From positions 95,645 to 159,644 of the forward strand of contig CACNYO010000001.1 of NCBI GenBank assembly GCA_902624765.1: a stretch of 64,000 bases of DNA, read 5' to 3'. Below the pieces are notes generated by a model, which saw only the letters and a program-made list of their open reading frames with translations, was not told the DNA's origin and ran no database searches. Position 1 is the stretch's first letter. The number at the start of each line of letters is the position of its first letter. This DNA comes from an uncultured SAR86 cluster bacterium. GTDB taxonomy: Bacteria > Pseudomonadota > Gammaproteobacteria > Magnimaribacterales > AG-339-G14. Below are positions 2,784 to 44,658 of the stretch, in pieces. The position numbers and the translations under genes were made by a program.

Positions 2784-3467
2784 ATGCTTTGGTTGAAAAC
2801 ATTAATAGGAATCACCGTTCAAGCTTTTTTTCTCGGAACTTTTATATATTTGCCTGCATGGACTTGGTATTGGGAAGATGCGATAACTTGGTTTAGCATT
2901 TTTTACATCATGACATTTTTTTCATGCATCTATTTGCTGATTTATAAGCCTGAAAGCTTAGAAGCAAGATTAAATATGCAACCCAGCAGTCAGCCAAGAG
3001 AAGATAAAATTGCAACTTCCTTAATGGTTTCTGCTATGGCGATAGGACTAATTTTCTCTCCATTAGATGCGTTTCATTTTCAAGTTACACCATCCTTCGA
3101 GGGTATCTTAAAAATATCAGGTTTAGGAATTTATGTAATAGGTTATCTCTTCATATTAGCTTCGATGCTTGCTAACGAATTTGCAGAAATGACAGTAAAT
3201 ATCCAAGACGATAGGGGGCAAAAAGTAATTGATACTGGAGTTTATGCTTATGTACGACACCCAATGTATACAGGGTTTATTTTTTTTATTTTAGGCACAA
3301 ATCTTTGGTTAGGAACTTACCTTTCATTTGGTATCTCGGTAATAGCTCTGACTGTAGGTCTTCATTTCAGAATTCGCATAGAGGAAAAAACACTAATAAA
3401 TGAATTGGACGGCTATCAAGATTATTTAAAAAAGGTAAAATTCAAAGTAATCCCATACATCATATGA
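2784..3467 (+). CDS. isoprenylcysteine carboxyl methyltransferase (ICMT)/phospholipid methyltransferase-family membrane protein
   Basis: Multi-pass hydrophobic protein with the family motif GVYAYVRHPMYTGFIFFILG. Its stop overlaps the next gene's start (ATGA at 3464-3467). Confidence 0.75.
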   Translation: MLWLKTLIGITVQAFFLGTFIYLPAWTWYWEDAITWFSIFYIMTFFSCIYLLIYKPESLEARLNMQPSSQPREDKIATSLMVSAMAIGLIFSPLDAFHFQVTPSFEGILKISGLGIYVIGYLFILASMLANEFAEMTVNIQDDRGQKVIDTGVYAYVRHPMYTGFIFFILGTNLWLGTYLSFGISVIALTVGLHFRIRIEEKTLINELDGYQDYLKKVKFKVIPYII

Positions 3468-8300: not shown

Positions 8301-9521
8301 ACAATCGCGGCTGTTGATAATTTTGGAAATGAAGCATCCATATCTTTGAAAATAATAGTCGAGGATATTATTGATGATCTGATTTCAAAAGTAGAGGAAG
8401 AATTGAGCTCTATTTTAAATAGTGATTTTTCAAGAACCATTGAAACTCAGATGGCGCAATTTTCAAGACAATCCAGAGACTCAATTTATAGACTGGGAAC
8501 TCAAAGAAAAGATTTTGATTGTGGTCCTCAAAAGCAAAGTGATCCTTCATCACTAAATATGGAAGATATTGTTGTAGGAGTGATAGATGCTGTAAATAGC
8601 GGTTCCTTTTCAGGAAATTACTCCAACGAAATATTTAATTGTAAAAATTCATCGATGGACATCATCGAAGGTAACTATTCTATTACCTATGACAAAGATC
8701 TTGGTACCCAATTATTTTTGGGAGGATCATCTCAAAGAGATTTATTTGTAGCCGAAGATTTTCTCTCGGGAGTTTCTTACGGTGGTTATTTGCAAAGAAC
8801 AAATACTGCATCGAGTGGTAAAGGCCATATTAATGGCCTTGGTGGAAATATTGGTTTCTACCAAGCAAGAAAATTTGATCAGTTATATTTGAACTATTAT
8901 GTTTCCGGATCTGTTGGTTATCATCAATATGAAATTTTCGTTGAGGACCCGTTAGAAACAATCAAAACAGAAGGTGCTTATCATTATTTTGCTTCTTTTT
9001 TTGGCTCCTCTTTATCTGGCAAAGTTGAGAGAGAGACTTTCAACTTGAGACCGAGTATTGGTCTAGATATGGCCATTGCAACAGCAAGTGATGCATCTAT
9101 TAAGGCAAAACAATTCTCAACTACTGAAAGAGGAAAATTAGATTTACCTTTTCATGATGGCTATAGATGGTATTCAGAGTTTGCTTTTGATTTTGGAAAC
9201 ATTGCTAACTTGTCAGGCTTTTCAAATAATAATCAAAGATTTGAAATTGCTCCAAGATTCTATTGCGATAATAAACTTAATGGTTCAGGCAATGATTGTG
9301 GCCTGGGTGCTTATTTCAAATATTCATTTGAAGATAATCTTGGGAGTAAAATTCATTTTCAGCTTGATTATGAGGAAACCGATAAGGTTAAAAGAAGTAA
9401 TTTAAAGTTTGGTAGAAAGAATTTGATTCTCAATGGTTTGGGCTCATCTACTACACAGCTAAATATGGATGAGATGGGAAGATTACAGTTAGAATATCTT
9501 TTGGATATATATTTGTTTTAG
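5304..9521 (+). CDS. large surface protein: signal peptide, 8 x 25-aa DUF285/BspA-type repeats, cadherin-like/Ig-like/Cna-B-like passenger domains, C-terminal autotransporter-type beta-barrel
   Basis: Signal-like segment KINRIIRPHFLFFTFFYSFFSSNALA/DT. A GTG at 5346 would give a canonical signal peptide, whereas the ATG at 5304 overlaps the amine oxidase by 59 nt. FNQDIxNWDVSxV repeats are present. LDNLTVSTGILSPEFDKDELSYSIDY is a cadherin-like beta-sandwich motif. DNTPPELVDTKPSD looks like an Ig-like/SbsA-type domain start. DDTGSYFFDELSEDTYKVEF is Cna-B/SdrD-like. NEYLVTIAAVDNFGNEASISLKIIVEDI is cadherin-like. The last ~270 aa show an alternating beta-strand pattern and end in ...LEYLLDIYLF (terminal Phe). 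Confidence 0.6.
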   Translation: MTRTQPSIYRQIAQVIKINRIIRPHFLFFTFFYSFFSSNALADTECFNPSNINTVGPAGTVCAEMLIVSKAMLLEAEEVGNGSDFSISFDGTDYTFGNSANNVFTGQITDFNYIFKDKTNFNADIGYWDLRNALSTRFMFQRASSFNQNINNWNVSNVINMQGMFHYATSFNQDLNSWDVSKVDNLRSIFQSAKVFNGNISSWNISNVWNLGYAFASAEAFNSDISNWDTSKVTYFGRTFLSAKEFNQDIGNWDVSKVRDFRRAFQGASKFNQDIGNWDVSSSTLLARMFKHASSFNQDLTCWNVKNILSEPAAFGGASNLSSENKPYWGDDPCSKNTTLDNLTVSTGILSPEFDKDELSYSIDYNNSQEEVNFSFSKKHPGATLTVNDQQVLNNQYSDSLNVGLNEFKIKITSEDTSLSKEYTISVTREAGPDIVSPEIKSLETSEDGSQIIIEVSELLNEQSIPPTSNFNVVVDNLSYEVTKTIIEGIKIILSVSKPITREAIEADKNVVLTYSAPTDNSSIKDLSDNELPSFKIKQVDNKSTIDNTPPELVDTKPSDDMLNVSTQSILNLTFSENINLSSGSIRLYKGDDRSNELIKTFEASPSSGMPSEIKVFENTAEIYLSGYLELSNKYYLLIDSDVFIDDAGNKYSGINKENQFNFSTPSVLLHQYEVGEEGTSGTASISGIAQFSDGQTAAGVMVNLYNSQNVIIKTSITDDTGSYFFDELSEDTYKVEFVGNSDSKLKGQADSGTVEGKFVTSIEVSEGEQIYGIDAVLIDPAGVIYDSISRQPIKGATVELKFNGNLVDSSWLDLNLGGPNSQITDSDGQYNFILNSNAESGKYSINVIPIDGYKFPSLSIPAELDAYTPNLGGGIEEIQPQDEAPSGSDQTTYYLDINFSITNESSSTSNGIINNHIPLDESIPPLISGPGLEDGTININEGDTLVGKFSSNESVSWSLRGEDKNLLNFDAESGDLVFQNVTDFENPNDTDLNNEYLVTIAAVDNFGNEASISLKIIVEDIIDDLISKVEEELSSILNSDFSRTIETQMAQFSRQSRDSIYRLGTQRKDFDCGPQKQSDPSSLNMEDIVVGVIDAVNSGSFSGNYSNEIFNCKNSSMDIIEGNYSITYDKDLGTQLFLGGSSQRDLFVAEDFLSGVSYGGYLQRTNTASSGKGHINGLGGNIGFYQARKFDQLYLNYYVSGSVGYHQYEIFVEDPLETIKTEGAYHYFASFFGSSLSGKVERETFNLRPSIGLDMAIATASDASIKAKQFSTTERGKLDLPFHDGYRWYSEFAFDFGNIANLSGFSNNNQRFEIAPRFYCDNKLNGSGNDCGLGAYFKYSFEDNLGSKIHFQLDYEETDKVKRSNLKFGRKNLILNGLGSSTTQLNMDEMGRLQLEYLLDIYLF
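5664..6263 (+). repeat. eight tandem 75-nt (25-codon) coding repeats (DUF285 units) inside the surface-protein gene
   Basis: The units begin with FNADIG, FNQNIN, FNQDLN, FNGNIS, FNSDIS, FNQDIG, FNQDIG and FNQDLT at an exact 75-nt period from 5664. Units 6 and 7 share a perfect 35-nt repeat (6037-6071 = 6112-6146). Confidence 0.9.
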
Positions 9522-10595: not shown

Positions 10596-11417
10596 TCACT
10601 TACCTTTAAAAATAGGTTCTTTCTTTTCAACGAATGCTTTTACAGCATTTTTGTGATCATGAGTTTGACCACAATGAATATGATGAGTTGCCTCTAAATC
10701 TAGACAATCATCTATATCACCATGCATAGCTCTATTAAGGTTTTCTTTCATGTATCTGAATGCAACAGCAGGCCCAGAGGCAAGTTTTTCTGCAATTTCT
10801 TTTGTTTTGAGTTCAAGATCATCCGGCTCAACTACCCAATTAGTTAAGCCAAGCTCAAGAGCATGATCAGCAGAAATCCTATCTGATAGAAAATATAATT
10901 CCCTTGCTTTTGCAGATCCAATAAGTTGGGTCATGAAATAGCTTCCTCCGTAATCGCCTGAAAAACCAACTTTGGCGAAGGCAGTTGTCATGAACGCCTC
11001 AGAGGACATAATTCTTAGGTCACAAGACAAAGCATACGATAGTCCTGCTCCCGCTGCAGCTCCTGATAAAGAAGCGATAGTGGGCTTAGGCATCTTAAAA
11101 AGCTTTCCTGAGGTGCCTCTTTGGTGATCTCGTTGTTTATGGATTGCTGCATCTATGGTGTTATCACCGACAGTCCCATCACCTTTGGAAGCCATTCCTT
11201 TAACATCTCCTCCAGCACAAAAGCCTTTTCCTGCACCTGTCAAAACAATGCATCTGACTTCGTTATCGAGTTCAAAAGCGGCAATAGTTTCTTGCATGGC
11301 TTTATTCATTTCTTGAGACATTGCATTTCTTGCCTCAGGACGATTCATCACAAGATATCCAACCCCGTTTTCTTTTCTTGCTAATAAATCTTGCGTTCCA
11401 GTATCAATTGATGTCAT
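10596..11417 (-). CDS. enoyl-CoA hydratase/isomerase (crotonase) family protein
   Basis: Crotonase oxyanion-hole region LTGAGKGFCAGGDV and typical length (273 aa). Its stop abuts the convergent small ORF with zero spacer. Confidence 0.88.
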   Translation of the reverse strand: MTSIDTGTQDLLARKENGVGYLVMNRPEARNAMSQEMNKAMQETIAAFELDNEVRCIVLTGAGKGFCAGGDVKGMASKGDGTVGDNTIDAAIHKQRDHQRGTSGKLFKMPKPTIASLSGAAAGAGLSYALSCDLRIMSSEAFMTTAFAKVGFSGDYGGSYFMTQLIGSAKARELYFLSDRISADHALELGLTNWVVEPDDLELKTKEIAEKLASGPAVAFRYMKENLNRAMHGDIDDCLDLEATHHIHCGQTHDHKNAVKAFVEKKEPIFKGK

Positions 11418-29417: not shown

Positions 29418-32057
29418 GTGAGAACAATTTTAAAATTTAATTTGTTGCTAATTCTTTTAGCTTCAATCCCTTTAGTCAACTCTCAAACTAATTCAGATCT
29501 TGAATATTTAGAATTGTTCCCAGAAAATCAATCCAATGATATTGCATCAAGGATACCTTCGAACAATGTTATAAAGGAAGATGCCCCAGTCTTTAAAAGT
29601 TCTATCAAGAAAGAAATACGTGAATCTGATGAAATTGATATTTTTGGATTAGATCTTTTTTCAACTTCTCCAACAACCTTTGCTCCAATTGATTTTTCTC
29701 CTGCTCCTTTAGATTATGTTTTAGGTCCCGGCGATGAACTTTTAGTGAAATATTTTGGCAATAGTAATTCTGAAGAATTAATTAGAGTAACTAGAGAAGG
29801 TAACATTCTTCTTCCACAAATAGGTTCGAGGCAAATCTCAGGCTTAACATTCAACGAGGCTCAGGAAAGAATAAGATCGAGTGTTGAAGCCTCTCTTATT
29901 GGTGTAGAGGTTGAAGTATCTTTGTCAAAAATTAGATCAATTCAGGTATTTATTCTTGGCAATGCTTTAAATCCAGGAGCATATACAGTAAGTTCACTGT
30001 CAAACATATCAAATGTTTTATTTTTCGCTGGAGGTCCTTCAGATTACGGATCTTTAAGAAATATAGAAGTTAAAAGAAATGGAGACTCAATAGGATTTTT
30101 TGATTTTTATGATTTATTAATAAATGGGAATACAAAAAGTGACATCAGACTTCAATCAAATGATGCAGTATTAATTAAACCTACTGGAATTACTGTCTCT
30201 ATTGTCGGAGAAATCAAGAAACAAGCTAAGTTTGAGTTATTAGAATCAGAAACCTTCTCAGATCTCTTAGAATTTTCTTCGGGCTTTACTCAAAATGCAG
30301 ATAAATCCAAAATTACCCTGAGCAGAATTGCTGAAAATGGCGAAAGAATTTTTGATAACTTTTCATATGAAGAAGCAAAAAAAATAAAATTCATCGATGG
30401 AGATGAAATAAGGATACATTCCCTTTCAAATACTCCAAGAAATAAAATTCTTGTCAAAGGAAGTACTTCCATCAATGGATCTATAGCATTTGAGGATGGA
30501 CTGACTTTAGAAGATATCATAAACCCAAGTTTTATTCTCGAAACAACATATACTCCATTTGTAGCGATTGAAAGAGAAAATATATATGGATCAAAGAAAT
30601 TGCTTAAAACAAATCTTCTTGCAAAGGAAGATAAAACTTTTCTTCAAGCTAATGACATCGTCTATATTTTTTCTAGATCTGACATAGAATTTATTAACTC
30701 TATTTTGGTGGCAAATGCCTTAGGTGTCCTAGACGCTGAAGACTCTAAAAGGCTTAATGATTATTTGAATCCTGACTTAAAAATATCTGTCGACAATATT
30801 AACGGTAACTCTCAGATGAATGGCTCAGAATTAGATGCTAATAACTTCATTCCAGCAAGAAGCAATAAGCCAGAGAAAGAAGATTTAGATAAATATAAAT
30901 GTAAATCTCTACAACTTTTATCAAAACAGTCCGATTCATCAACAATAAAATTTGTAAAATCCAAGCAGTTTCCTAAATCAAACTTCAGCCCTATTGATGA
31001 ATTAAAGTTTATAGAAAAATGTCCAGAAATTTTTGAAGAAAATCCTAATTTGCTGGTTTTCTTGCTCGAAAATTCTTCTATTATTTCAGGTGAAGTAAGA
31101 AATCCAGGTATCTTTCCTTCATACATGGTTTCATCACCATTAGATCTCCTTTCATATGCTGGAGGTCAGACAGATAGTTCTTCTGGAATGATGGATATTT
31201 TCACACATGATGGAAAATCATTTAATTTAGATCTCAAAGAGATGCAAAACTTCAGAGAATTGGGAATTAAGAGTGGTTTTTACGCAAATATATCCTCTAA
31301 GATCAGAGACGAAGTTTTCTCAGTTAGTTTGCAGGGATCCTTTGTAAGTCCTGGTGTCTATGGGGTTAGGCAAGGAGAAAGGCTTTCAAGTGTAATTAAA
31401 AGAGCAGGAGGCTATAAGGAAAATGCATTTCCTTATGGAGGCATATTGGCAAGAAAATCTGTAGCAGAGAAAGAAAAGATAGGATTTATGAAATCAGCAG
31501 ATCAATTGAAAGAATCTGTGGCATCTGCTATATCGAGTGGAAGAATTTCATCTTCTGGGGGTAACCCAGCTTTGGTGCTCTCTTCAATTTCCAGTCTAAT
31601 AGGTGATTTAGAAAAGATTAATCCTATTGGAAGAGTCGTTTCAGAATTTGATATAGATAATTTAGAGAAGTATCCGGAAAGAGATATTCTCTTAGAATCA
31701 GGAGACAGAATCTTTGTACCTGAAAGATCATCCACGGTAACCGTTTCAGGCCAAGTTCTTTCGCCGACAAGCTTTAACTTCAATCCTAAGTTTAAGGTAA
31801 ATGATTATATTCAGTTAGCTGGTGGATATCAGGAGGGCGCAGATAGAAATAGAATTTTAGTTATTTATCCTAATGGTATGGCAACAAGAGTTCGAGCATG
31901 GCCTAATCAGCCGGATATCTCACCTGGTACTTCACTAATTATTCCAAGAGATCCAAATCCTTTTGACTGGCTTGTATTTACAAATATTCTTTTTCCAATT
32001 ATTTCAAATTTTGCTACAAGCGCAGCAGCTATAGCAGCTCTTGGTAATAACAATTAA
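29418..32057 (+). CDS. large Wza/OtnA(WbfF)-like polysaccharide export protein with multiple SLBB domains
   Basis: Signal peptide, a Poly_export-type motif (YVLGPGDELLVKYFG), several SLBB-like repeats (e.g. ...NRILVIYPNGMATRV...PGTSLIIPRD), and a C-terminal hydrophobic helix (ILFPIISNFATSAAAIAALG) like the Wza outer-membrane helix. GTG start. Confidence 0.75.
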   Translation: MRTILKFNLLLILLASIPLVNSQTNSDLEYLELFPENQSNDIASRIPSNNVIKEDAPVFKSSIKKEIRESDEIDIFGLDLFSTSPTTFAPIDFSPAPLDYVLGPGDELLVKYFGNSNSEELIRVTREGNILLPQIGSRQISGLTFNEAQERIRSSVEASLIGVEVEVSLSKIRSIQVFILGNALNPGAYTVSSLSNISNVLFFAGGPSDYGSLRNIEVKRNGDSIGFFDFYDLLINGNTKSDIRLQSNDAVLIKPTGITVSIVGEIKKQAKFELLESETFSDLLEFSSGFTQNADKSKITLSRIAENGERIFDNFSYEEAKKIKFIDGDEIRIHSLSNTPRNKILVKGSTSINGSIAFEDGLTLEDIINPSFILETTYTPFVAIERENIYGSKKLLKTNLLAKEDKTFLQANDIVYIFSRSDIEFINSILVANALGVLDAEDSKRLNDYLNPDLKISVDNINGNSQMNGSELDANNFIPARSNKPEKEDLDKYKCKSLQLLSKQSDSSTIKFVKSKQFPKSNFSPIDELKFIEKCPEIFEENPNLLVFLLENSSIISGEVRNPGIFPSYMVSSPLDLLSYAGGQTDSSSGMMDIFTHDGKSFNLDLKEMQNFRELGIKSGFYANISSKIRDEVFSVSLQGSFVSPGVYGVRQGERLSSVIKRAGGYKENAFPYGGILARKSVAEKEKIGFMKSADQLKESVASAISSGRISSSGGNPALVLSSISSLIGDLEKINPIGRVVSEFDIDNLEKYPERDILLESGDRIFVPERSSTVTVSGQVLSPTSFNFNPKFKVNDYIQLAGGYQEGADRNRILVIYPNGMATRVRAWPNQPDISPGTSLIIPRDPNPFDWLVFTNILFPIISNFATSAAAIAALGNNN

Positions 32058-34194
32058 ACTAAAACTTTCATTTTTACTGTTTCTTTTTTCTTCAATCAGT
32101 TTCTCATCTATTGAAGACTATATATTTTCTGATATAGGTTTTACCTCAAATATTCATGGTGAGCTTGGAATAATAGAAATACCCTCATCAAGGATTCTAG
32201 AAGAGGGAAACTTAAAATTGCACCTTGTTAATTCTGATCCCATTAATTCACTTTTCATGACTGCAACTCCTTTTAACTGGATGGAGGTTTCATTGAGATA
32301 CGCAGATGTAAACCTTTATAAGTATAGTAGGTATTTTTCTTTCTCTGGTAATCAAAGTTACAAGGATAAAAGCTTCAATATGAAACTGAGATTAATTCAA
32401 GAAACAGAAAGATTTCCTGAATTAAGTATTGGGTTTAGAGATTTTATAGGAACTGGAAGATTTTCAAGTGAATATATTGTTGCATCAAAGAAAATAGGAG
32501 ACTTTGATTTTTCTGTTGGGTTAGGTTTTGGAGCAATGTCATCTCTTGATGGGATTGAAAATCCATTTATTGATCTTGATGATTCATTTGCAACAAGAGG
32601 TTACATAGACAGCATCGGAGGAAATTTTGGTTTAGGCAATTGGTTTAGAGGAAAAAAAGCATCGTCTTTCTATGGATTTGAATATTTGAATAAAAGATCA
32701 GGCATTAGATTTAAGTTAGACTACGATGAATCAGAATTATTTAATGCTTTCTCAAGGATGAGAAAGAAGAGTTTTTACAATTTTGGTTTAGCTATCCCTA
32801 TTGGTGATCTTGTGGACATCAATTTGTTTAGAATAAGGGGTCAAGATATTGGTTTATCTTTTTCTTATAAAGCAAATTACTCAAGAAATATTGTAAAAAA
32901 AGAAGAAAGAGTGGCTGACTTAGTTTTCAATGAGAGCGATTTAAAACTTCTGGCTACTGATGATCAAGTTTTTGGAGGAACAATAAACTTCTATCTTCAA
33001 AAATATGAAATTTTTCTACAACAAATTAATTACAAAGATAACTCTATCCACTTAATTTTAAGTCAAACGAAGTATAGAAATGAAAATTTAGCTTCTAAAA
33101 GAACAATTCAGGTCATTAGAAATATTCTTGAAACTCGAAAAATAGAAAAAGTATCCTTGACTTATCAAGTTGCAGGAGTCAACAAATATTCATTAAATTT
33201 TAGATTGGATGATTTCTTAGCTTATCTAGATAATGCCACTTCTTATACATCTTTGAAAAGATCTCTAAATTATGAAAATTTCTCATCTAATTTGTCAGAT
33301 AATCAAATATTTAAAGGCAAAATCCTCTTTCCATCCTTCAACTGGGGGATAAGCCCAAATTTACAAAATCATATTGGAGGCCCAGAGGCTTTTTATTTAG
33401 GTTCCCTTGGATTACTTTTACATGGCGGTGTTTTATTTTCAAAACAGACCTTTCTTGATGGAAGCTTATCTTTTAATTTTTATGATAATTTTGATGATTT
33501 CAAGTTTCGTACTTATTCTAAGTATCTTCCTAAAGTACGATCCGACATACGAGAGTATTTGAAAGAAGGAAAAAGAGGCATTTCGCGTTTAACGCTGACT
33601 CATATTTTTGATCCTGTATATAAAAAAAATGGGTTGTTTGTTTATGGGCTAAAATTTGGAATCTTTGAAACAATGTACTCCGGATTTGGTAGTGAAATAT
33701 TATATAGAGATATGGGAAAACCTTGGTACATAAGCGCAAATGCTTATTGGGTAAAACAAAGAGAGTTCAGACAAAAATTTGCTCTCAGAGACTATGAGAC
33801 CTTTACAGGTCATTTGAACTTTACATGGGAAACTCCACTAGAAGGATTGAAAGTAGGAATTTCAGCAGGAAGATATCTTGCGAAGGATTCTGGCATTACT
33901 TTGAAATTATCTAAAACTTTTAAATCGGGCTTTGTAGTAGGAGCATTTGCAACTAAAACAGATATTTCTGCAGAGGAATTTGGTGAGGGAAGCTTTGATA
34001 AAGGAATATTTTTTTCTATACCGCTCGATATTGTTTCAAAGCAGTACAGGGAAGGCTACGGAAGATTTTTATGGAGAAATTTAACAAGGGATGGAGGGCA
34101 AATGTTAGGTGGAGGCTTACAGCTTGAAGGAATAGTAGAATCAGCTAACTATCACAATTTAATCAACGATATTTATGGTTTTGAAGCCGAATAG
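32041..34194 (+). CDS. yjbH: YjbH/GfcD-family outer-membrane exopolysaccharide protein
   Basis: Strong collinear similarity to E. coli YjbH as recalled: ..F.W.E..LRY.DV......S....FSG.Q.YKDK.F..KLRL..E......IG.RD..GTG.F..EY.VASK..G.FDF..GLG.G, and C-terminal ..EE.GEG.F.KG...S.PLD. TTG start overlapping the upstream gene by 17 nt. Confidence 0.9.
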   Translation: MVITIKLKLSFLLFLFSSISFSSIEDYIFSDIGFTSNIHGELGIIEIPSSRILEEGNLKLHLVNSDPINSLFMTATPFNWMEVSLRYADVNLYKYSRYFSFSGNQSYKDKSFNMKLRLIQETERFPELSIGFRDFIGTGRFSSEYIVASKKIGDFDFSVGLGFGAMSSLDGIENPFIDLDDSFATRGYIDSIGGNFGLGNWFRGKKASSFYGFEYLNKRSGIRFKLDYDESELFNAFSRMRKKSFYNFGLAIPIGDLVDINLFRIRGQDIGLSFSYKANYSRNIVKKEERVADLVFNESDLKLLATDDQVFGGTINFYLQKYEIFLQQINYKDNSIHLILSQTKYRNENLASKRTIQVIRNILETRKIEKVSLTYQVAGVNKYSLNFRLDDFLAYLDNATSYTSLKRSLNYENFSSNLSDNQIFKGKILFPSFNWGISPNLQNHIGGPEAFYLGSLGLLLHGGVLFSKQTFLDGSLSFNFYDNFDDFKFRTYSKYLPKVRSDIREYLKEGKRGISRLTLTHIFDPVYKKNGLFVYGLKFGIFETMYSGFGSEILYRDMGKPWYISANAYWVKQREFRQKFALRDYETFTGHLNFTWETPLEGLKVGISAGRYLAKDSGITLKLSKTFKSGFVVGAFATKTDISAEEFGEGSFDKGIFFSIPLDIVSKQYREGYGRFLWRNLTRDGGQMLGGGLQLEGIVESANYHNLINDIYGFEAE

Positions 34195-34855
34195 TTTGAA
34201 AACTATTTTCACTATAATTTTAGGTATATTTTTATCGTCCTGTGGAGGTCATACTGGAATATACGAGGAACTTGCATTAGCGGTAAAAGATATTTTTTCT
34301 GCCCCACAAGATTTAAGTGTAGAACAGATAAATAAGGTTCCTTATGCTTCAATGCAAGTCAGGCTGGGAAGAGCACCTAATGTCTTAGTTGTGTTAGAGG
34401 AAGATAGGCAGGGGTTACTCAAGTGGACTTCTTCAAATCAAATTAAAATTTATACTAAAAATGGCAAAATAATTAGACTGACTGGTACAGATAATGAATT
34501 AGACTTACTGGACATAGGCTTAAATCATCCTTTGCTCAATCCTGATTCACTTAATCCAAAATTGGATATGTCTCTCACAACTTTTTATAATTTTAGAAAT
34601 CCAAATCTCTATAATCTTCCGGTTAAAATTAGATTCAGGTATTTAAGAGAAGAGGAATTAATAATAATGGGTCAAAAAATTGAAACTTTATTATTTGAAG
34701 AGAGCTCCAGAAAAAATGATATTTTCTGGGAATTTACTAATCTTTTTTGGGTTGATAAAAAAGAAAAGACTGTATTGAAATCTATACAAAGTTTTACTCC
34801 TAAAAACCCTAAAATATTTTTTACCATCACTAGGAAGTACAAAAAGCCTGAATAA
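34175..34855 (+). CDS. yjbF: YjbF/GfcB-family lipoprotein
   Basis: Lipobox ILGIFLSSC-GG. The motif ..PYASMQVRLGRAPNVLVVLEEDRQGLLKWTS matches E. coli YjbF (MPYASQYMQLNGGPQLFVVLAFAEDGQQKWVT) as recalled. Confidence 0.88.
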   Translation: MVLKPNSLKTIFTIILGIFLSSCGGHTGIYEELALAVKDIFSAPQDLSVEQINKVPYASMQVRLGRAPNVLVVLEEDRQGLLKWTSSNQIKIYTKNGKIIRLTGTDNELDLLDIGLNHPLLNPDSLNPKLDMSLTTFYNFRNPNLYNLPVKIRFRYLREEELIIMGQKIETLLFEESSRKNDIFWEFTNLFWVDKKEKTVLKSIQSFTPKNPKIFFTITRKYKKPE

Positions 34856-34866
34856 ACAGGCTTTTT
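34841..34866. terminator. bidirectional intrinsic terminator hairpin between convergent yjbF and the YjbE-like gene
   Basis: AAAAAGCCTG-aataaa-CAGGCTTTTT forms a perfect 10-bp stem with a GC core and T-runs on both strands. It includes the yjbF stop codon. This is the only convergent junction in the window with a recognisable hairpin. Confidence 0.7.
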
Positions 34867-34884
34867 GTAAAAAATTGAGATTGC

Positions 34885-35253
34885 TTAGTTTGTAGAGGTT
34901 GCAGTTGCAGTTGATGTTGTGGTTGATGTAGCAGGCGCTGTTGCTGTGACAGTTGTAGTTGCTGTTTCAGTTTCAACTTCAGCCTCTTCCTCTTCTTCAA
35001 CTTCCTCTTCTTCTTCCTCCTCCTCTTCTTGGACTGGAGGAAGTGGTTCAGGTTTAGCTACTTTATCCCCATCTTGAGCATCAACAATTGCAGCTACTGC
35101 TAAAACAGCTGCAGCAATTGCAGCTATAACTCCACTGGATAAGGACCCAGCAGCACCTGATGCACTTGAACCTCCTGCTCCACCAGATTGAGTGAAAGAT
35201 AAAGGCGCAAAGATCATGCAGAAAGCTATTGTCAGTACTTTTAGTAATTTCAT
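34885..35253 (-). CDS. YjbE/GfcA-like low-complexity secreted/membrane protein (signal peptide, G/S/A-rich segment, Ala/Val/Ile hydrophobic segment, poly-Glu block, Thr/Ala tail)
   Basis: MKLLKVLTIAFCMIFAPLSFT signal peptide. SGGAGGSSASGAAGSLSS. GVIAAIAAAVLAVAAIV. QEEEEEEEEEVEEEEEAEVETE. TATTTVTATAPATSTTTSTATATSTN. The architecture and its position next to yjbF/yjbH match E. coli YjbE/GfcA (Thr-rich small proteins), apart from the acidic block. Confidence 0.6.
   Translation of the reverse strand: MKLLKVLTIAFCMIFAPLSFTQSGGAGGSSASGAAGSLSSGVIAAIAAAVLAVAAIVDAQDGDKVAKPEPLPPVQEEEEEEEEEVEEEEEAEVETETATTTVTATAPATSTTTSTATATSTN
34983..35030. repeat. polypyrimidine/polypurine tract (48 nt with only 2 purines on the + strand, including a 30-nt uninterrupted C/T run at 35001-35030) encoding the poly-Glu block
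   Basis: Read directly: cctcttcctcttcttcAActtcctcttcttcttcctcctcctcttctt. Confidence 0.9.
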
Positions 35254-35405
35254 AATTTACCTCAATTAAATTTCTCGTCCCAGAGATGTTGCCATAATAT
35301 ATATATTTTAGGCATTTGTGAATATATTTTTTATTTTTTTGAGTGAATGTATCATGAGCCCAAAATTTGTAAGATATGAATAATTAGAACAGTTTTTTTG
35401 CCTTT

Positions 35406-39542: not shown

Positions 39543-39561
39543 ACTGTGTATTTATACAGTA
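39542..39561. promoter_or_regulatory. SOS box (LexA operator) at the lexA start
   Basis: TACTGTGTATTTATACAGTA matches the gammaproteobacterial consensus TACTG(TA)5CAGTA, with the core CTGT-N8-ACAG at 39544-39559. Its last base on the lexA strand is the A of the lexA ATG. Confidence 0.85.
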
Positions 39562-39644
39562 TAAATTGGAAAAATCAAAAAACTATATATAATTTTCTGA
39601 CAAAATTTACTTTTTTTTATAATTTTAGGTTATATAATAAATTC

Positions 39645-40619
39645 ATGAAATTTCAACAATTACTATACGTTCGTGAAGTAGCTAGAAGCAATTTGAATGT
39701 TTCTCAAGCTTCGAAGAATCTTTACACCTCGCAACCTGGAATAAGTAAGCAAATTAAATTGCTCGAGGAAGAATTAGGAATTGAGTTGTTTGAGAGATCC
39801 GGGAAACATTTGGTGGCTATTACTCCCATTGGCAAAAGAATACTTGAGCAGATTGAGGAAATTCTTGCACTTGTTGATGGTATTAAACATGCTGCAACAG
39901 AGTTTTCTAATGAGGATTATGGTTCATTGGCTATTGCAACTACGCACACTCAAGCCAAATTTACCCTACCTCCTGTGGTGGATAAATTTGTTAAGAAATA
40001 TCCCAATGTCTCCTTTCAAATGAATCAATGCACGCCAGACGAGTCAGTGGAAATGGCTGCAAAAGGCGAAGTTGATTTGGCAATTTGGACAGAAACATCC
40101 GAAAAAGGTGAAACACTGATTAAACTTCCTGCCTACAAATGGTCAAGAAGTTTAATAGTTCCCAAAGGGCATCCTCTTGCCGATGTAACCAAGCCAAAAC
40201 TAAAACATTTGGCTGAATTTCCGATAGTTACTTATGTTTTTGGGTTTACTGGCAGTAATGACCTTGATAGAGCTTTTTTTGAAAGAGGTTTGAAAGCTAA
40301 TGTTGTTTTTACTGCGACCGATGCTGACGTAATAAAGACATATGTTAAACAAGGAATAGGAGTAGGAATCATTGCATCCATGGCTTTCAATGAACAAGAG
40401 GACAAAGACCTAGTAGCCATTAACGCTAACCACCTATTTGATTCAGGTACGACATACATTGGATTTAGGAGGGGAACGTATCTAAGAAGCCACTTGTACC
40501 AGTTCATTCAAATGTTCGCTCCCCATCTAAAAACAGAATTAATTGCAAAAGCTTGTGCAACTAAATCAAAAAAAGAATTAGATAAAATATTTGAATCCAT
40601 TAAACTCATCAGGAGATAA
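39645..40619 (+). CDS. cysB: LysR-type transcriptional regulator CysB (or Cbl paralogue)
   Basis: From the internal ATG at 39645: MKFQQLLYVREVARSNLNVSQASKNLYTSQPGISKQIKLLEEELG. This is collinear with E. coli CysB over the whole length (TTHTQA.., VTYVFGFTG, FTATDADVIKTYV, IGFRRGTYLR) and has the same 324-aa length. The ORF-track start at 39546 is a GTG extension through the SOS box. Confidence 0.85.
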   Translation: MKFQQLLYVREVARSNLNVSQASKNLYTSQPGISKQIKLLEEELGIELFERSGKHLVAITPIGKRILEQIEEILALVDGIKHAATEFSNEDYGSLAIATTHTQAKFTLPPVVDKFVKKYPNVSFQMNQCTPDESVEMAAKGEVDLAIWTETSEKGETLIKLPAYKWSRSLIVPKGHPLADVTKPKLKHLAEFPIVTYVFGFTGSNDLDRAFFERGLKANVVFTATDADVIKTYVKQGIGVGIIASMAFNEQEDKDLVAINANHLFDSGTTYIGFRRGTYLRSHLYQFIQMFAPHLKTELIAKACATKSKKELDKIFESIKLIRR

Positions 40620-40620
40620 T

Positions 40621-41220
40621 TTGGATTATTTGTGCCTGGATTTTGAGGGAGTTTTGATTCCTGAAATATGGCAAGAAGTCTCCAAGGCAACTGGCATAGA
40701 AGATCTGATGCTAACAACTCAAGATCTTGAGAGTTATGAAGAACTAATGGACATTCGCCTTAAATTAGTTTCCGATAACAACATTACAATCCATGACATT
40801 ATGGAGATTGTTAAAAAAATGGAACCTATGGATGGCGCAGCTGATTTTTTATCTTGGGCAAGAGATAATTTTCAAGTTTCCATTGTTTCAGATACTTTCT
40901 ATGAGTTATGTTGGCCCTTAGTTAGAAAGTTAAACTATCCACATTTGATTTGTCATCATTTAGAGCTTAATGGTTCTGAAATAATCGGCTACAAGTTAAA
41001 GCAAGATAATAATAAACAAAAGGTCATTGAGGCTATTAAGGAAACCATGAAATTTAAAGTTTTTGCTGCTGGAGATTCTTACAACGACATCAATATGTTG
41101 AATTCTGCAGATCAAGGTTTCTTTTTTCAAGCTCCTTCACACATCAAAGAAAAATATCCACATTTAGAAACTATAAAAGATCATAATGAACTTAAGATTA
41201 AGTTAGAGAACTACTTATGA
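40621..41220 (+). CDS. thrH: ThrH-like HAD phosphatase (phosphoserine phosphatase/homoserine phosphotransferase)
   Basis: Collinear with P. aeruginosa ThrH as recalled (CLDLEGVL.PEIW..., ..SDTFYE......L..P.L.CH.LE......GY.L...., AAGDSYND..ML). An AGGAG SD at 40611-40615 precedes the TTG at 40621. The ORF-track ATG at 40591 would overlap cysB by 29 nt. Confidence 0.8.
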   Translation: MDYLCLDFEGVLIPEIWQEVSKATGIEDLMLTTQDLESYEELMDIRLKLVSDNNITIHDIMEIVKKMEPMDGAADFLSWARDNFQVSIVSDTFYELCWPLVRKLNYPHLICHHLELNGSEIIGYKLKQDNNKQKVIEAIKETMKFKVFAAGDSYNDINMLNSADQGFFFQAPSHIKEKYPHLETIKDHNELKIKLENYL

Positions 41221-42074
41221 GCTGGGACAAATTAATAAAAGAGAACAAACCTCTTGTCATAGTAGGAACAATAAATGCTTATTCCGCTCTTTTAGCTGAA
41301 AGGGCGGGCATTCAAGCTATATATCTTTCAGGAGGTGGGGTAGCTAATGCCAGTTACGGACTTCCTGACTTAGCCATGACTTCAAGAGAAGATGTTTTAG
41401 AAGATGTTAGAAGAATAAGGTCTGCTACAAAACTCCCCCTACTAGTGGACATTGATACCGGTTGGGGCTCCGCATTAAGCATTTCTAGGACTATTAAAGA
41501 AATGATATCTGCGGGTGCATCGGGTGTTCACATTGAAGATCAAGTGAGCGAAAAAAGGTGTGGTCATAGACCTAATAAAGAAATAGTTAGTTGTGAAGAA
41601 ATGGTCGATAGAGTCAAAGCAGCAAAAGATGCACAGACTGACGACAATTTCTTGCTCATGGCAAGAACAGATGCATTTGCAAAGGGCGGACTTCAGGAAG
41701 TTATAGATAGATCAAATGCCTTTATAGAGGCAGGAGCAGGAGCTATATTTCCAGAGGCTATTTCAAAGTTAAAAGACTATGAGGAAATTTCAAAGAATGT
41801 ATCCAAGCCCATACTGGCCAATATAACTGAGTTTGGTATGACTCCTCTTTTTTCTCATAATGATCTTGCTGATGCGGGTGTAAAGATTGTTCTGCATCCC
41901 TTATCTGCTTTCAGAGCTATGTCCAAAGCTGCAGAAAAAGTATATGCTACCCTAGCTTCAGGTGGGGACCATGAAGGTTTACTTGATAAAATGCAAACAA
42001 GAGATGAATTGTATGATGTCCTGGATTATCATATGTACGAAGAGAAAATTGATAAACTTTTCGAAAAAAACTAA
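41217..42074 (+). CDS. prpB: methylisocitrate lyase
   Basis: Isocitrate-lyase/PEP-mutase motif IEDQVSEKRCGHRPNKE. 285 aa. Genomic context with prpC and prpD. Confidence 0.92.
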   Translation: MSWDKLIKENKPLVIVGTINAYSALLAERAGIQAIYLSGGGVANASYGLPDLAMTSREDVLEDVRRIRSATKLPLLVDIDTGWGSALSISRTIKEMISAGASGVHIEDQVSEKRCGHRPNKEIVSCEEMVDRVKAAKDAQTDDNFLLMARTDAFAKGGLQEVIDRSNAFIEAGAGAIFPEAISKLKDYEEISKNVSKPILANITEFGMTPLFSHNDLADAGVKIVLHPLSAFRAMSKAAEKVYATLASGGDHEGLLDKMQTRDELYDVLDYHMYEEKIDKLFEKN

Positions 42075-42080
42075 ATAATA

Positions 42081-43205
42081 ATGGCTGAAAAGAAACTAGA
42101 GGGTGCTGGCCTTCGTGGACAGGTAGCTGGACAAACAGCTCTCTCAACCGTTGGAAAAGAAGGAAAAGGACTCACTTACAGAGGATATGCAATTGAGGAA
42201 CTTTCTGAGAAAGCCTCATTTGAAGAGGTTGCTTACATGCTTCTTTATGGGAATTTACCTAACCAATCTCAGTTGAGTGAATACAAGGAAAAATTAAAAA
42301 AATATAGAGAGCTTCCGTCAGAATTAAAAAAAGTACTTGAACTGATTCCTGCATCTGCCCATCCAATGGATGTCCTAAGAACAGGCTGTTCCTTTCTGGG
42401 AAACATAGAACCAGAAGGAGATTTCTCTAATCAAACTGATATTGCTGATAGATTGATATCTATCTTCCCATCAATTGTTTGTTATTGGTATCGTTATTCG
42501 CATGACGGAGTATCAATAGAAACTGCTTCGGACCATGACTCTATTGGAGGTCACTTTCTTTCAATGCTTACAGGGAAAGAACCGAGTGAAGATCACTCAA
42601 GATGTTTAGATGTTTCTTTAATTCTCTATGCTGAACACGGATTCAATGCTTCAACTTTTACTGCTAGAACATGTGCCTCAACTTTGTCAGATCTTCATTC
42701 TTGTATCACTGGGGCTATTGGCACTCTAAGGGGGCCTCTTCATGGAGGTGCTAACGAAGCTGCGATGGAAATGATAGAAAAATTTTCTTCCAGAGAAGAC
42801 GCTAATGCTGGTGTGAAAAAAATGTTAGAAGCTAAAGAGAAAATAATGGGTTTCGGACATGCGGTTTACACTTCAGAGGATCCAAGAAGCGATATTATCA
42901 AGTCATGGGCTAAAAGATTAAGCGAACAGAATGGAGACGATACTCTTTATCAAGTCTCCGAAGAGATTGATAAAGTTATGGATGAAGAAAAAAATCTATT
43001 TCCAAATACTGACTTTTATATGGCATCAGCATATTCATACTTAGGCATTCCCACAAAAATTTTTACTCCCTTGTTTGTCATAGGCAGGACTTCAGGTTGG
43101 TCCGCAAATATCATTGAGCAAAGAGCTGATAATAGAATCATCCGACCCAGCGAGGAATATATTGGACCTGAAAAATCTGATTGGGTCGATATAGAAAATA
43201 GATAA
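42081..43205 (+). CDS. prpC: 2-methylcitrate synthase
   Basis: Citrate-synthase family (GPLHGGANE, GFGHAVY), 374 aa, flanked by prpB and prpD. Confidence 0.9.
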   Translation: MAEKKLEGAGLRGQVAGQTALSTVGKEGKGLTYRGYAIEELSEKASFEEVAYMLLYGNLPNQSQLSEYKEKLKKYRELPSELKKVLELIPASAHPMDVLRTGCSFLGNIEPEGDFSNQTDIADRLISIFPSIVCYWYRYSHDGVSIETASDHDSIGGHFLSMLTGKEPSEDHSRCLDVSLILYAEHGFNASTFTARTCASTLSDLHSCITGAIGTLRGPLHGGANEAAMEMIEKFSSREDANAGVKKMLEAKEKIMGFGHAVYTSEDPRSDIIKSWAKRLSEQNGDDTLYQVSEEIDKVMDEEKNLFPNTDFYMASAYSYLGIPTKIFTPLFVIGRTSGWSANIIEQRADNRIIRPSEEYIGPEKSDWVDIENR

Positions 43206-43212
43206 ACTTCAT

Positions 43213-44658
43213 ATGTCTTCAAACGTAGATCAAAATGTACGTCCTGATTTTGATGAATTAATTCAAAAGATTTCAGACTACTCCCAAAGCGATAATCAAT
43301 TTAATGACCTTGCCATGGAAACGGCAAGGTATTGCTTAATGGATACTTTGGGATGTGGTCTATTAGCTCTTACTTTTGATGACTGCAAAAAGATGCTTGG
43401 TCCTTTTGCAGATGATGTAAAAGTTAAAAATGGCGTAAGAGTTCCCGGAACAAACTTCGTCCTTGATCCCGTTAAAGGTGCTTGGGATATAGGAGCAATT
43501 ATAAGATGGTTGGATTTTAATGACACATGGTTGGCTGCTGAATGGGGACATCCATCAGATAATTTAGGCGGCATTTTGGCTGCTGCTGATTACATCTCTC
43601 AGCAAAATAGAGAAAATAATAAAGAACCTTTAAAGATGAAGGCAGTATTGGAAAGCATGATCAAGGCCCATGAAATTCAAGGAGTTTTAGCAATAAAAAA
43701 TAGCTTTAACCGAGTAGGCTTAGATCATGTTCTTCTCGTTAAACTTGCATCGACATCTGTCATAGCAAAATTATTTGGACTCTCGAAAGAGCAATCTTTA
43801 GATGCTATTTCACAAGTTTTCGTTGATGGTCAAAGTTTAAGAACTTATCGACATGCACCTAACGCTGGTCCAAGGAAATCTTGGGCTGCTGGAGATGCTA
43901 CCAGTAGAGCAATGCAGCTAGTTTTATTTACTTTAAGAGGTCAAATTGGTTATCCGAGCGCAATAACTGCAAAAACATGGGGCTTTCAGGATGTCTTATT
44001 TAAAGGTAAAGATTTGATTGTCGAACAAGACTTTAATTCTTATGTGATGGAAAATATTTTATTTAAAATATCTTTCCCAGCTGAATTTCATGCCCAAACT
44101 GCAGTTGAAGCAGCCGTGAGACTTCATCCGGAAATTAAAGACAGATTGGATGAAATTCAGCAAATTAAAATCACAACTCATGAGTCAGCAATCAGGATTA
44201 TCAGTAAAGAGGGTGAATTGAATAATCCAGCCGATAGAGATCATTGCCTCCAATATATGACTGCCATTGGATTGTTGAAGGGAGATCTAGTTGCTGAGGA
44301 TTATGAAGATGATGTTGCAAGCGATCCTAGAATTGATGAGTTGAGACAGAAAATGCTGATTGAAGAGGATAAAAGATACTCAGCTGAGTATCATGAACCC
44401 GATAAAAGATCTATTTCTAATGCATTGCAAATCATTTTTAAAGACGGAAGTTCAACAGAAAAGATTGAGGTTGAATATCCAATTGGTCATAAATTCAGGC
44501 GAGAAGAGGGTATTCCAATTCTCTTAGAAAAATTCAAAAGAAACCTACTTACTCAGTTTGATGAAGAAAAAACAAATCAGATTTTTGAGTTATGTCAGGA
44601 TAAAGACAAGCTTCTGGATACTCCTGTAGACGAATTCATGGGGATGTTGGCTAAATAA
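43213..44658 (+). CDS. prpD: 2-methylcitrate dehydratase
   Basis: MmgE/PrpD family, 481 aa, in the prpB-prpC-prpD context. Confidence 0.9.
   Translation: MSSNVDQNVRPDFDELIQKISDYSQSDNQFNDLAMETARYCLMDTLGCGLLALTFDDCKKMLGPFADDVKVKNGVRVPGTNFVLDPVKGAWDIGAIIRWLDFNDTWLAAEWGHPSDNLGGILAAADYISQQNRENNKEPLKMKAVLESMIKAHEIQGVLAIKNSFNRVGLDHVLLVKLASTSVIAKLFGLSKEQSLDAISQVFVDGQSLRTYRHAPNAGPRKSWAAGDATSRAMQLVLFTLRGQIGYPSAITAKTWGFQDVLFKGKDLIVEQDFNSYVMENILFKISFPAEFHAQTAVEAAVRLHPEIKDRLDEIQQIKITTHESAIRIISKEGELNNPADRDHCLQYMTAIGLLKGDLVAEDYEDDVASDPRIDELRQKMLIEEDKRYSAEYHEPDKRSISNALQIIFKDGSSTEKIEVEYPIGHKFRREEGIPILLEKFKRNLLTQFDEEKTNQIFELCQDKDKLLDTPVDEFMGMLAK

Follow-up and report, generated by a model that had tools for sequence, protein, structure and literature searches.

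Four genes between nadK and pyrD of an uncultured SAR86 cluster bacterium, at positions 29418-35253 of the 64,000-nucleotide stretch of contig CACNYO010000001.1 analysed here (the window), probably encode a core, vertically inherited outer-membrane apparatus for the export and anchoring of a surface glycan of the capsule, O-antigen-capsule or exopolysaccharide (EPS) type, split from the variable genes for the glycan itself. They code for an 879-aa outer-membrane polysaccharide export (OPX) protein, a YjbH/GfcD-family protein, a YjbF/GfcB-family lipoprotein and, on the opposite strand, a small Thr-rich protein. The block belongs, in streamlined form, to a known kind of system and is not a new class of secretion device; its streamlined traits are the lack of a stand-alone YjbG and of an adjacent polysaccharide co-polymerase (PCP), and a convergent, expanded YjbE-like gene that is separately and highly transcribed. 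Two observations are new here: a stand-alone yjbG and a large OPX gene abutting yjbH are mutually exclusive across 80 loci, and the small open reading frame (ORF) exceeds every other gene of the 60 kb surveyed about 5-13x in transcript level in three marine metatranscriptomes.

SAR86 bacteria are among the most abundant marine heterotrophs, and their surface layer governs phage adsorption and grazing. The roles of the YjbEFGH/GfcABCD proteins are still unresolved, even in E. coli. The SAR86 module represents a natural minimal system, with GfcC only inside the OPX protein, no PCP nearby and one barrel. A first-pass annotation of the window, made from the sequence alone, had described the four genes, all of which are real and correctly placed, with Pfam backing the identities of OPX, YjbH and YjbF; it had further proposed that they form a self-contained device without a glycan, an idea that our comparisons do not bear out.

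The OPX protein contains a GfcC module

The 879-aa protein (29418-32057, + strand, GTG start), identified from the ORF list and by Pfam, Foldseek and hhalign, is an ordinary Class 2 OPX protein of the KpsD/OtnA type. Its N-terminus, MRTILKFNLLLILLASIPLVNSQ, reads as a putative Sec-type signal sequence without a lipobox cysteine. Searches with hidden Markov models (HMMs), by which the first-pass annotation had suggested defining its domains, returned Poly_export (PF02563, E 6.6e-15) and four stretches of SLBB (E 8.9e-33), both above the curated cutoffs, together with three stretches of SLBB_2 and a weak match to Caps_syn_GfcC_C at aa 785-843 (E 0.002, 18.4 bits against a cutoff of 20). The Poly_export (PES) domain covers aa 95-169 (29700-29924, + strand), where the AlphaFold2 (AF2) model has a predicted local distance difference test (pLDDT) score of 72-82, and is followed by four SLBB β-grasp domains at about aa 174-627 (29937-31298, + strand), delimited by the four Pfam matches and the AF2 secondary structure. 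A helical or disordered insert in the SLBB region, at about aa 420-550, is poorly modelled and carries two invariant cysteines (C495, C535). In an hhalign comparison with a SAR86 profile, the N-terminal part (aa 1-431) matched the Wza/GfcE profile (97.1%, E 4.8e-11), and Wza is also the top Foldseek match of the OPX model (E 3e-18). NCBIfam gave only sub-threshold EpsE/PEP-CTERM-exporter matches for OPX and nothing for the other three proteins.

Behind the SLBB domains lies a GfcC/YjbG-like module (aa 635-847; 31320-31958, + strand), found by hhalign, BLASTP and Foldseek alike. Against a profile of 14 YjbG/GfcC sequences it scored 98.4% in hhalign (E 8.7e-15) over positions 25-230 of 258, a match that spans nearly the whole of mature GfcC. 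BLASTP searches with OPX reached GfcC at E 8e-7 and YjbG at E 7e-6, and its model matched stand-alone GfcC (3P42) with a Foldseek probability of 1.0. AF2 predicts the hallmark arrangement of GfcC, a β-grasp, a long helical hairpin (aa 680-732) and a further β-grasp, and then a terminal helix at aa 851-874 with low pLDDT. This hydrophobic helix (aa 850-876, DWLVFTNILFPIISNFATSAAAIAALG; 31965-32045, + strand), marked by invariant columns and the AF2 model, is a candidate outer-membrane-spanning segment: the terminal 27 residues have a mean Kyte-Doolittle hydropathy of +1.35 and one charge, compared to -0.59 and six charges for the amphipathic terminal helix of GfcC. The last ~40 OPX residues are essentially invariant across SAR86.

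Class 2 OPX proteins have been defined by the order Poly_export-SLBBn-GfcC with or without Wza_C and divided into subclass 2A, without Wza_C, and subclass 2B, with it and with a median length of 824 aa (Saidi et al. 2022, PMC9603273). About 83% of Class 2B members have a Sec/SPI instead of a lipoprotein signal, GfcD/YjbH barrels are encoded near 18-19 Class 2B genes of the representative set, and the integrated GfcC has been proposed to bind such barrels (PMC9603273). The SAR86 protein resembles this class in having Poly_export, SLBB and GfcC domains and a predicted extended terminal helix, in a putative signal sequence that lacks a lipobox, in its length (879 aa against the median of 824) and in being encoded next to a YjbH barrel. 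PF02563 and SLBB together place it among the OPX proteins, and a GfcC module that does not overlap the Wza-like part places it in Class 2. The earlier suggestion that the SLBB protein unites Wza and YjbG in one polypeptide is therefore supported, both by the hhalign match and by the lack of a stand-alone yjbG at any SAR86 locus; such a fusion of GfcC into OPX is already published as the Class 2 architecture.

Homologues of the protein number more than 2400; the best 120 of these are full length and mostly about 60% identical, and the named ones come from SAR86 cluster bacteria. Colinearity along the entire protein also extends to the large OPX proteins from Aeromonadaceae and from a Burkholderiales metagenome-assembled genome (MAG). 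SAR86 itself has two OPX length classes, full and about 600 aa (loci L015, L017, L019, L021, L024, L031, L032 and L036). The shorter form lacks only the region equivalent to aa ~326-625 of the window protein, that is, two SLBB domains and the Cys-containing insert, and keeps the GfcC module and the terminal helix.

YjbH and YjbF

The second gene (32041-34194, + strand; 717 aa if translation starts at TTG 32041) encodes a predicted outer-membrane protein of the YjbH/GfcD family, whose members form a double β-barrel. It matched Pfam YjbH (PF06082) with E 1.1e-161 over profile positions 2-652 of 658 and is 31-32% identical to E. coli YjbH and GfcD over its full length. The third gene (34175-34855, + strand; 226 aa, with an alternative start at TTG 34196) matched Pfam YjbF (PF11102, E 7.2e-28, profile positions 7-187 of 189), and the lipobox L-S-S-C is readable in its signal peptide (...GIFLSSCGG), so that its product is a predicted lipoprotein of the YjbF/GfcB family. 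Both identifications agree with the first-pass reading of a clear YjbH/GfcD homologue and a YjbF/GfcB lipoprotein.

Conservation of the module and mutual exclusivity of yjbG and OPX

The closest genome by YjbH is the SAR86 single-cell genome AG-911-D02, at 96% identity. The window's gene order, Vut_1-nadK-OPX-yjbH-yjbF-smallORF(-)-pyrD-topA-lexA, recurs unchanged in SAR86 contigs 758 kb and 963 kb long whose proteins are only about 60% identical, and the same nadK/pyrD context occurs in further SAR86 loci. Because synteny is kept at this level of identity, we consider the module to be a core part of the genome, vertically inherited and under selection in the lineage, and not an island.

A profile search with a YjbH alignment yielded 80 loci with up to 10 kb on each side, the neighbours of which were typed by local phmmer. 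Stand-alone yjbG genes were found in 57 of the 80 loci, all outside SAR86 and in the F-G-H order known from E. coli, and in none of these 57 did an OPX gene abut yjbH. The yjbG-less loci, 19 from SAR86 and one each from a Burkholderiales MAG, a Pseudomonadota MAG and Motiliproteus, carry, immediately upstream of yjbH, a gene for an OPX of 500 aa or more; two SAR86 loci (L008 and L013) were scored as exceptions, with yjbH probably called from a late start (630 and 653 aa). Counted the other way, stand-alone YjbG is present in 57 of 58 non-SAR86 loci without an abutting OPX. Searches with E. coli YjbG and GfcC (phmmer, E<1e-4) detected no stand-alone yjbG/gfcC, either in the window or, for about 20 SAR86 loci, inside the 10 kb on each side, and the stand-alone YjbG between yjbF and yjbH that is usual for operons of the yjbEFGH/gfcABCD type is accordingly missing from the SAR86 loci.

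A Hylemonella MAG (L068, 9128-12748, + strand) encodes a 1206-aa YjbH that also matches YjbG and GfcC (E 2.7e-10 and 1.1e-9) and is followed by a 790-aa OPX. Judging from these matches, it is a natural GfcC-YjbH fusion, like Burkholderia OtnG, which is a fusion of GfcC and GfcD (PMC8592465). Both proteins resemble the SAR86 system in having a GfcC module without a stand-alone gene, but carry it on the barrel, whereas the SAR86 module sits at the OPX C-terminus. The existence of such fusions supports the notion that GfcC and YjbH act together.

Since the GfcC module is either stand-alone, OPX-borne or YjbH-fused, each YjbH locus in our sample has it in some form. The exclusivity of yjbG and an abutting OPX gene provides compact comparative evidence that the GfcC module connects OPX to YjbH barrels, and the minimal SAR86 module makes the proposed contacts between OPX-GfcC, YjbF and YjbH a clean target for structure prediction and reconstitution.

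Relation to glycan genes

A Pfam scan of essentially all 57 ORFs of the window yielded no glycosyltransferase (GT), sugar-nucleotide enzyme, Wzx/Wzy, Wzc/Wzb or ABC exporter, and local phmmer and hmmsearch runs with E. coli YjbG, GfcC, Etk and Etp and with short-PCP probes gave zero matches in the window. The list of missing functions in the first-pass annotation (YjbG, Wzc/Etk, Wzb/Etp, Wzx/Wzy and any glycosyltransferase) is thereby confirmed for these 64 kb.

The linkage to glycan genes that is usual for capsule and EPS loci is thus absent from the window, but it is present in more distant SAR86 lineages (~35% YjbH identity), where OPX, yjbH, yjbF and the small ORF lie outside the nadK/pyrD context and beside glycan genes. 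In 9 of 9 distant loci with upstream DNA, glycosyltransferase or sugar-nucleotide genes occur within about 8 kb, with content that differs per genome and includes glycosyltransferases, rmlABCD, Ugd, epimerases, a formyltransferase and a deacetylase. The same search, using the distant lineages' genes as probes, found such genes at none of the 10 loci in nadK/pyrD context. For example, the module adjoins GT2 and Ugd in the complete SAR86 genome CP097973.1; GT4, GT1, a C-methyltransferase and rmlABCD in AG-313-D11; and an AsnB-like amidotransferase, GT2, a deacetylase, a formyltransferase, an epimerase, Ugd and GT1 in AG-447-K20.

In CP097973.1 (locus L017), directly upstream of OPX, the genes for a 497-aa GT2 and for Ugd enclose that for a 582-aa protein without a Pfam match (5352-7100, + strand); together, the three could represent a synthase-type pathway. 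In two other lineages, a 625-aa protein encoded just upstream of the module (L032, 4967-6844, - strand; L036, 4915, - strand) matches PMT_2, a GT-C family including ArnT- and protein-mannosyltransferase-like enzymes, with 25.0 bits, below the cutoff of 26.1. Should the small Thr-rich protein be O-glycosylated, such a neighbour might be relevant.

An orphan position is normal for the family, since E. coli yjbEFGH is itself an orphan: in E. coli K-12 it is flanked by pgi and psiE, glycan genes are absent from its vicinity, and it has been implicated in EPS production (PMC8592465). The only report on capsule, O-antigen or glycosyltransferases of SAR86 that our literature search found describes a hypervariable genome region with glycosyltransferases, GDP-mannose dehydratases and acetyltransferases (PMC3569297). 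The module of the window's lineage is physically detached from glycan synthesis; functionally, it probably is not. A self-contained device without a glycan, as first suggested, is at odds both with the variable glycan genes that abut the same module in all nine distant lineages and with the orphan position of E. coli yjbEFGH.

The small convergent gene and its transcription

The fourth gene (34885-35253, - strand) encodes a 122-aa YjbE/GfcA-like small protein, secreted or membrane-bound, and is supported by conservation and codon pattern. The protein consists of a signal peptide, a Gly/Ser/Ala stretch, an Ala-rich hydrophobic core (aa 38-62; nt 35068-35142), a poly-Glu linker and a Thr/Ser-rich tail. 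Nearly all SAR86 lineages have the gene, always linked to the module and coding for 122-285 aa, with a common build of signal peptide, short Gly/Ser/Ala/acidic stretch, Ala-rich segment with a D/G turn, acidic or (APTP)n linker and Thr/Ser-rich tail. Within the window's lineage the 25-residue core is invariant, while pairwise comparisons of its DNA show 10-19 differences over 75 positions, in a synonymous manner; the 24 variable sites are distributed over the three codon positions as 2/0/22. Because the core is invariant and its changes are synonymous only, we conclude that the ORF codes for a real protein on which purifying selection is strong. The same pattern rules out the alternative that we considered, an antisense or RNA-only feature.

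The small protein is YjbE/GfcA-like by architecture and position only, and we do not call it a YjbE homologue. It matched no curated Pfam family above cutoff, and none of 14 SAR86 versions matched Pfam YjbE (PF11106) at E<=1. This family also misses E. coli GfcA, matching only E. coli YjbE, and is thus too narrow to decide membership; in hhalign, the match between the core and enterobacterial YjbE/GfcA was weak (24% over 12 columns). The build is nevertheless common to enterobacterial YjbE/GfcA and to small ORFs of Pseudaeromonas and a Pseudomonadota MAG, including an AG-x-LS-x-G motif. The SAR86 protein shares with YjbE/GfcA the signal peptide, this motif, the hydrophobic segment, the D/G turn, the Thr-rich tail and the position beside yjbF. 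The first-pass description of a convergent, Thr-rich, YjbE/GfcA-like protein therefore holds for build and orientation, whereas sequence homology is not established.

RNA evidence came from contigs of three marine metatranscriptomes, surveyed over window positions 1-60,000. Over the small gene (nt 35001-35216), contigs with 0-2 mismatches had depths of 118, 44 and 282, while the top depth of any other surveyed gene in the same three runs was about 18, 9 and 22, and contigs of nadK, OPX and yjbH had depths of 2-5. The small gene thus exceeds the next-highest gene 5-13x and OPX and yjbH roughly 10-60x, consistently in 3 of 3 runs; transcripts of all module parts were detected. Other SAR86 lineages differ from the window at 13-25% of nucleotides in the conserved core, so the zero-mismatch contigs are lineage-specific and not pooled over SAR86.

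The small gene is a very highly transcribed unit of its own. The excess of its transcript over those of the channel genes argues for an abundant envelope component and against a stoichiometric channel subunit, and its level is compatible with a role as cargo or matrix. That the most-transcribed gene of the surveyed 60 kb encodes a small Thr-rich envelope protein is of relevance for SAR86 surface biology and metaproteomes. One RNA contig of run X1 (depth 219) joined positions 26359 and 35324; we rejected it as an assembly chimera, its shorter side comprising only 20 nt.

Comparison with known systems

The Vibrio capsule block (K-antigen/O139) comprises yjbH-yjbG-yjbF (wbfB-C-D), VP0218, wbfE, wbfF (the otnA/kpsD-type OPX) and wzz (otnB), and its conserved export genes border a variable glycan region (PMC7829505). 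Common to this block and SAR86 are a KpsD/OtnA-type OPX, a YjbH barrel and a YjbF lipoprotein, and the distant SAR86 modules are likewise located at the edge of a glycan region. Aeromonadaceae loci have the same set as Vibrio, with an OPX colinear with that of SAR86. Unlike Vibrio, SAR86 lacks both a stand-alone yjbG and a neighbouring wzz-type PCP and arranges OPX-yjbH-yjbF on one strand, with the small gene convergent to them, and in the window's lineage the module is detached from all glycan genes.

E. coli yjbEFGH has a homologous YjbH and YjbF, a small protein with signal peptide, hydrophobic segment and Thr-rich part, and an orphan location among housekeeping genes, as in SAR86. It differs in having a separate YjbG, in lacking an OPX in the operon, and in its yjbE, which comes first, on the same strand, and encodes 80 aa; the SAR86 small gene is convergent, its product is longer, and homology between the two is not detectable by profile methods. 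The group 4 capsule operon of E. coli, gfcABCDE-etp-etk, resembles SAR86 in uniting GfcB/C/D-type proteins with an OPX in one locus, but its GfcE is a short Class 1 lipoprotein of the Wza type (379 aa), its GfcC is separate, and it encodes the kinase Etk and the phosphatase Etp. E. coli KpsD, for its part, works with KpsE and KpsMT and, unlike the SAR86 OPX with YjbH as its putative partner, has no β-barrel partner.

A model for the module and its alternatives

In the mechanism we favour, the glycan would be built at the inner membrane by enzymes of a hypervariable island elsewhere in the genome and would cross the periplasm through the Class 2 OPX, whose Poly_export and SLBB rings would form the conduit. 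The built-in GfcC would replace the stand-alone YjbG and, together with YjbF, dock OPX on the YjbH double β-barrel, for which the GfcB-GfcC heterodimer that binds GfcD in E. coli offers a precedent (PMC8592465). The polymer may leave through a pore formed by the OPX terminal helices or through the C-terminal barrel of YjbH, with a lateral gate releasing a lipid-anchored form. The abundant Thr-rich YjbE-like protein would be an envelope component that carries, anchors or organizes the glycan layer.

Several observations weigh against this model, and the missing PCP and assembly pathway are its main weakness. OPX proteins are generally thought to require a PCP. Yet about 20 SAR86 loci, searched within 10 kb of the module, yielded no PCP of the Wzz, Wzc or KpsE type and no flippase, polymerase or ABC exporter, and Etk, Etp and a 7-sequence short-PCP HMM remained unmatched even at E<=1 in the window and the SAR86 loci, which thus lack the cognate PCP that lies beside OPX in loci of the group 1/4 or Vibrio type. 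All three yjbG-less loci outside SAR86 have a short PCP nearby. The glycan-synthesis genes of the window's lineage have not been located, the search having covered the 64-kb window. Aeromonadaceae have a stand-alone YjbG in addition to a large Class 2 OPX, so a built-in GfcC need not replace YjbG. The terminal helix has no Pfam match to Wza_C and an hhalign score of 2.7% to the Wza C-terminus, so that homology to Wza_C is undetected. The AF2 monomer model of OPX is of moderate quality (mean pLDDT 59.5), for which reason it was used for domain order only, and contig depth is a crude measure of expression, from contigs that carry no strand.

A route variant of this model, which we regard as possible but as the less probable version, treats the C-terminal barrel of YjbH as the exit: it would act as an insertase, releasing O-antigen capsule linked to lipopolysaccharide or lipooligosaccharide sideways, with OPX-GfcC-YjbF as a periplasmic feeder only. 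A lateral exit of lipid A through the C-terminal barrel is supported by molecular dynamics of E. coli GfcD (PMC11494523), SAR86 conserves YjbH from end to end, and the missing PCP would be less of a problem if the substrate arrived lipid-linked. However, the idea is purely computational even for E. coli, and the invariant hydrophobic terminal helix suggests that OPX itself enters the outer membrane; sequence does not tell the two exit routes apart. That the module is a non-functional capsule-locus leftover, remaining after the loss of the synthesis genes from a streamlined genome, seems extremely improbable. It would account for the absence of glycan genes from the 64 kb and for the low RNA signal on OPX and yjbH, but the ORFs are intact and detectably transcribed, synteny is kept over SAR86 genomes of about 60% identity, neither the OPX C-terminus nor the small-ORF core varies, the DNA changes in the latter being synonymous only, and streamlined genomes do not retain 5.8 kb of dead genes.

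A more radical departure from glycan export, which we think unlikely, takes the Thr-rich YjbE-like protein, possibly O-glycosylated or amyloid-like, as cargo that is secreted via YjbH, with its FapF-like N-terminal barrel, and/or via OPX and forms an outer layer without a classical capsule polymer. The constant linkage of the small gene to the module in SAR86 would fit, as would its product, in which an invariant core is joined to a mucin-like tail that varies, with (APTP)n linkers and tracts rich in Thr in proteins of up to 285 aa. The transcript excess over OPX, yjbH and every other surveyed gene is more readily expected of a cargo or matrix protein than of a channel subunit, no PCP was found near the module at any SAR86 locus, and two lineages have the weak PMT_2-like GT-C neighbour. 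Similar speculation has been published for GfcA and the FapF-like barrel of GfcD (PMC8592465, PMC9603273). Against this stands that Poly_export/SLBB OPX proteins are known only as polysaccharide conduits and that polysaccharide-type genes (rml, Ugd, GT1/GT2/GT4) adjoin the module in all nine sister lineages. Moreover, the Ala-rich core resembles a stop-transfer membrane helix, which would place the Thr-rich tail on the cytoplasmic side, homology to YjbE/GfcA is not established, and the protein is known at the level of genes and transcripts. Still a little more doubtful is a specific form of this idea, in which a PCP-less and YjbG-less envelope machine of OPX-GfcC, YjbH and YjbF would have as its main product a layer of a very abundant YjbE-type protein, mucin-like and O-glycosylated, that YjbH would display or anchor, and not a free capsule polymer. 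If true, it would give the YjbE/GfcA-YjbH pair its first defined substrate relationship, in a very abundant ocean bacterium.

Gene junctions and further features of the window

The nadK stop codon lies 1 nt before the OPX start. The overlap of 17 nt between OPX and yjbH requires yjbH to start at TTG 32041, and the one of 20 nt between yjbH and yjbF requires yjbF to start at ATG 34175; an in-frame TTG at 34196, 1 nt past the yjbH stop, is equally compatible with a lipoprotein signal peptide. In relatives, the three genes are adjacent without overlap. Of the translational coupling assumed in the first-pass annotation, the tight junctions therefore stand, whereas the overlap lengths hinge on the choice of start codons.

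A hairpin between the operon and the convergent small gene (34838-34869) is likely a bidirectional terminator. It is a perfect 13-bp palindrome flanked by A- and U-tracts and overlaps the yjbF stop codon. The consensus terminator scan did not list it, but RNA folding confirmed it, at -18.2 kcal/mol (z -6.3) on one strand and -18.6 kcal/mol (z -7.4) on the other, a stability that none of 200 shuffles reached. Upstream of the small gene, a promoter scan found a σ70-like sequence, TTCACA-17-TATTAT (35294-35322, - strand), with the joint top score (10 of 12 matches); since the scan listed no more sites in the region than chance would give, we regard it as a candidate only.

By Pfam, the flanking genes are nadK and pyrD, and the rest of the window is housekeeping or catabolic, including acyl-CoA dehydrogenases, topA, lexA, leu and trp genes, acnB, cysS and a prpBCD-like cluster. 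In the latter (39546-44658), a methylcitrate-cycle cluster divergent from lexA, a LysR regulator and a HAD hydrolase precede a prpB-like gene (PEP_mutase/ICL), a prpC-like citrate synthase and PrpD. No Rfam family reached threshold anywhere in the window, including a stretch of about 725 nt (10596-11320) without an ORF of at least 70 aa, in a window whose genes otherwise abut or overlap. A predicted surface protein of 1405 aa (5304-9521, + strand), with three DUF285 repeats and cadherin-like, Big_5 and SdrD_B-like domains, is a giant, adhesin-like protein in a streamlined genome. At 3464-5362 (+ strand), a full-length copper amine oxidase (E 1.9e-139) is encoded beside a methyltransferase of the PEMT/ICMT family.

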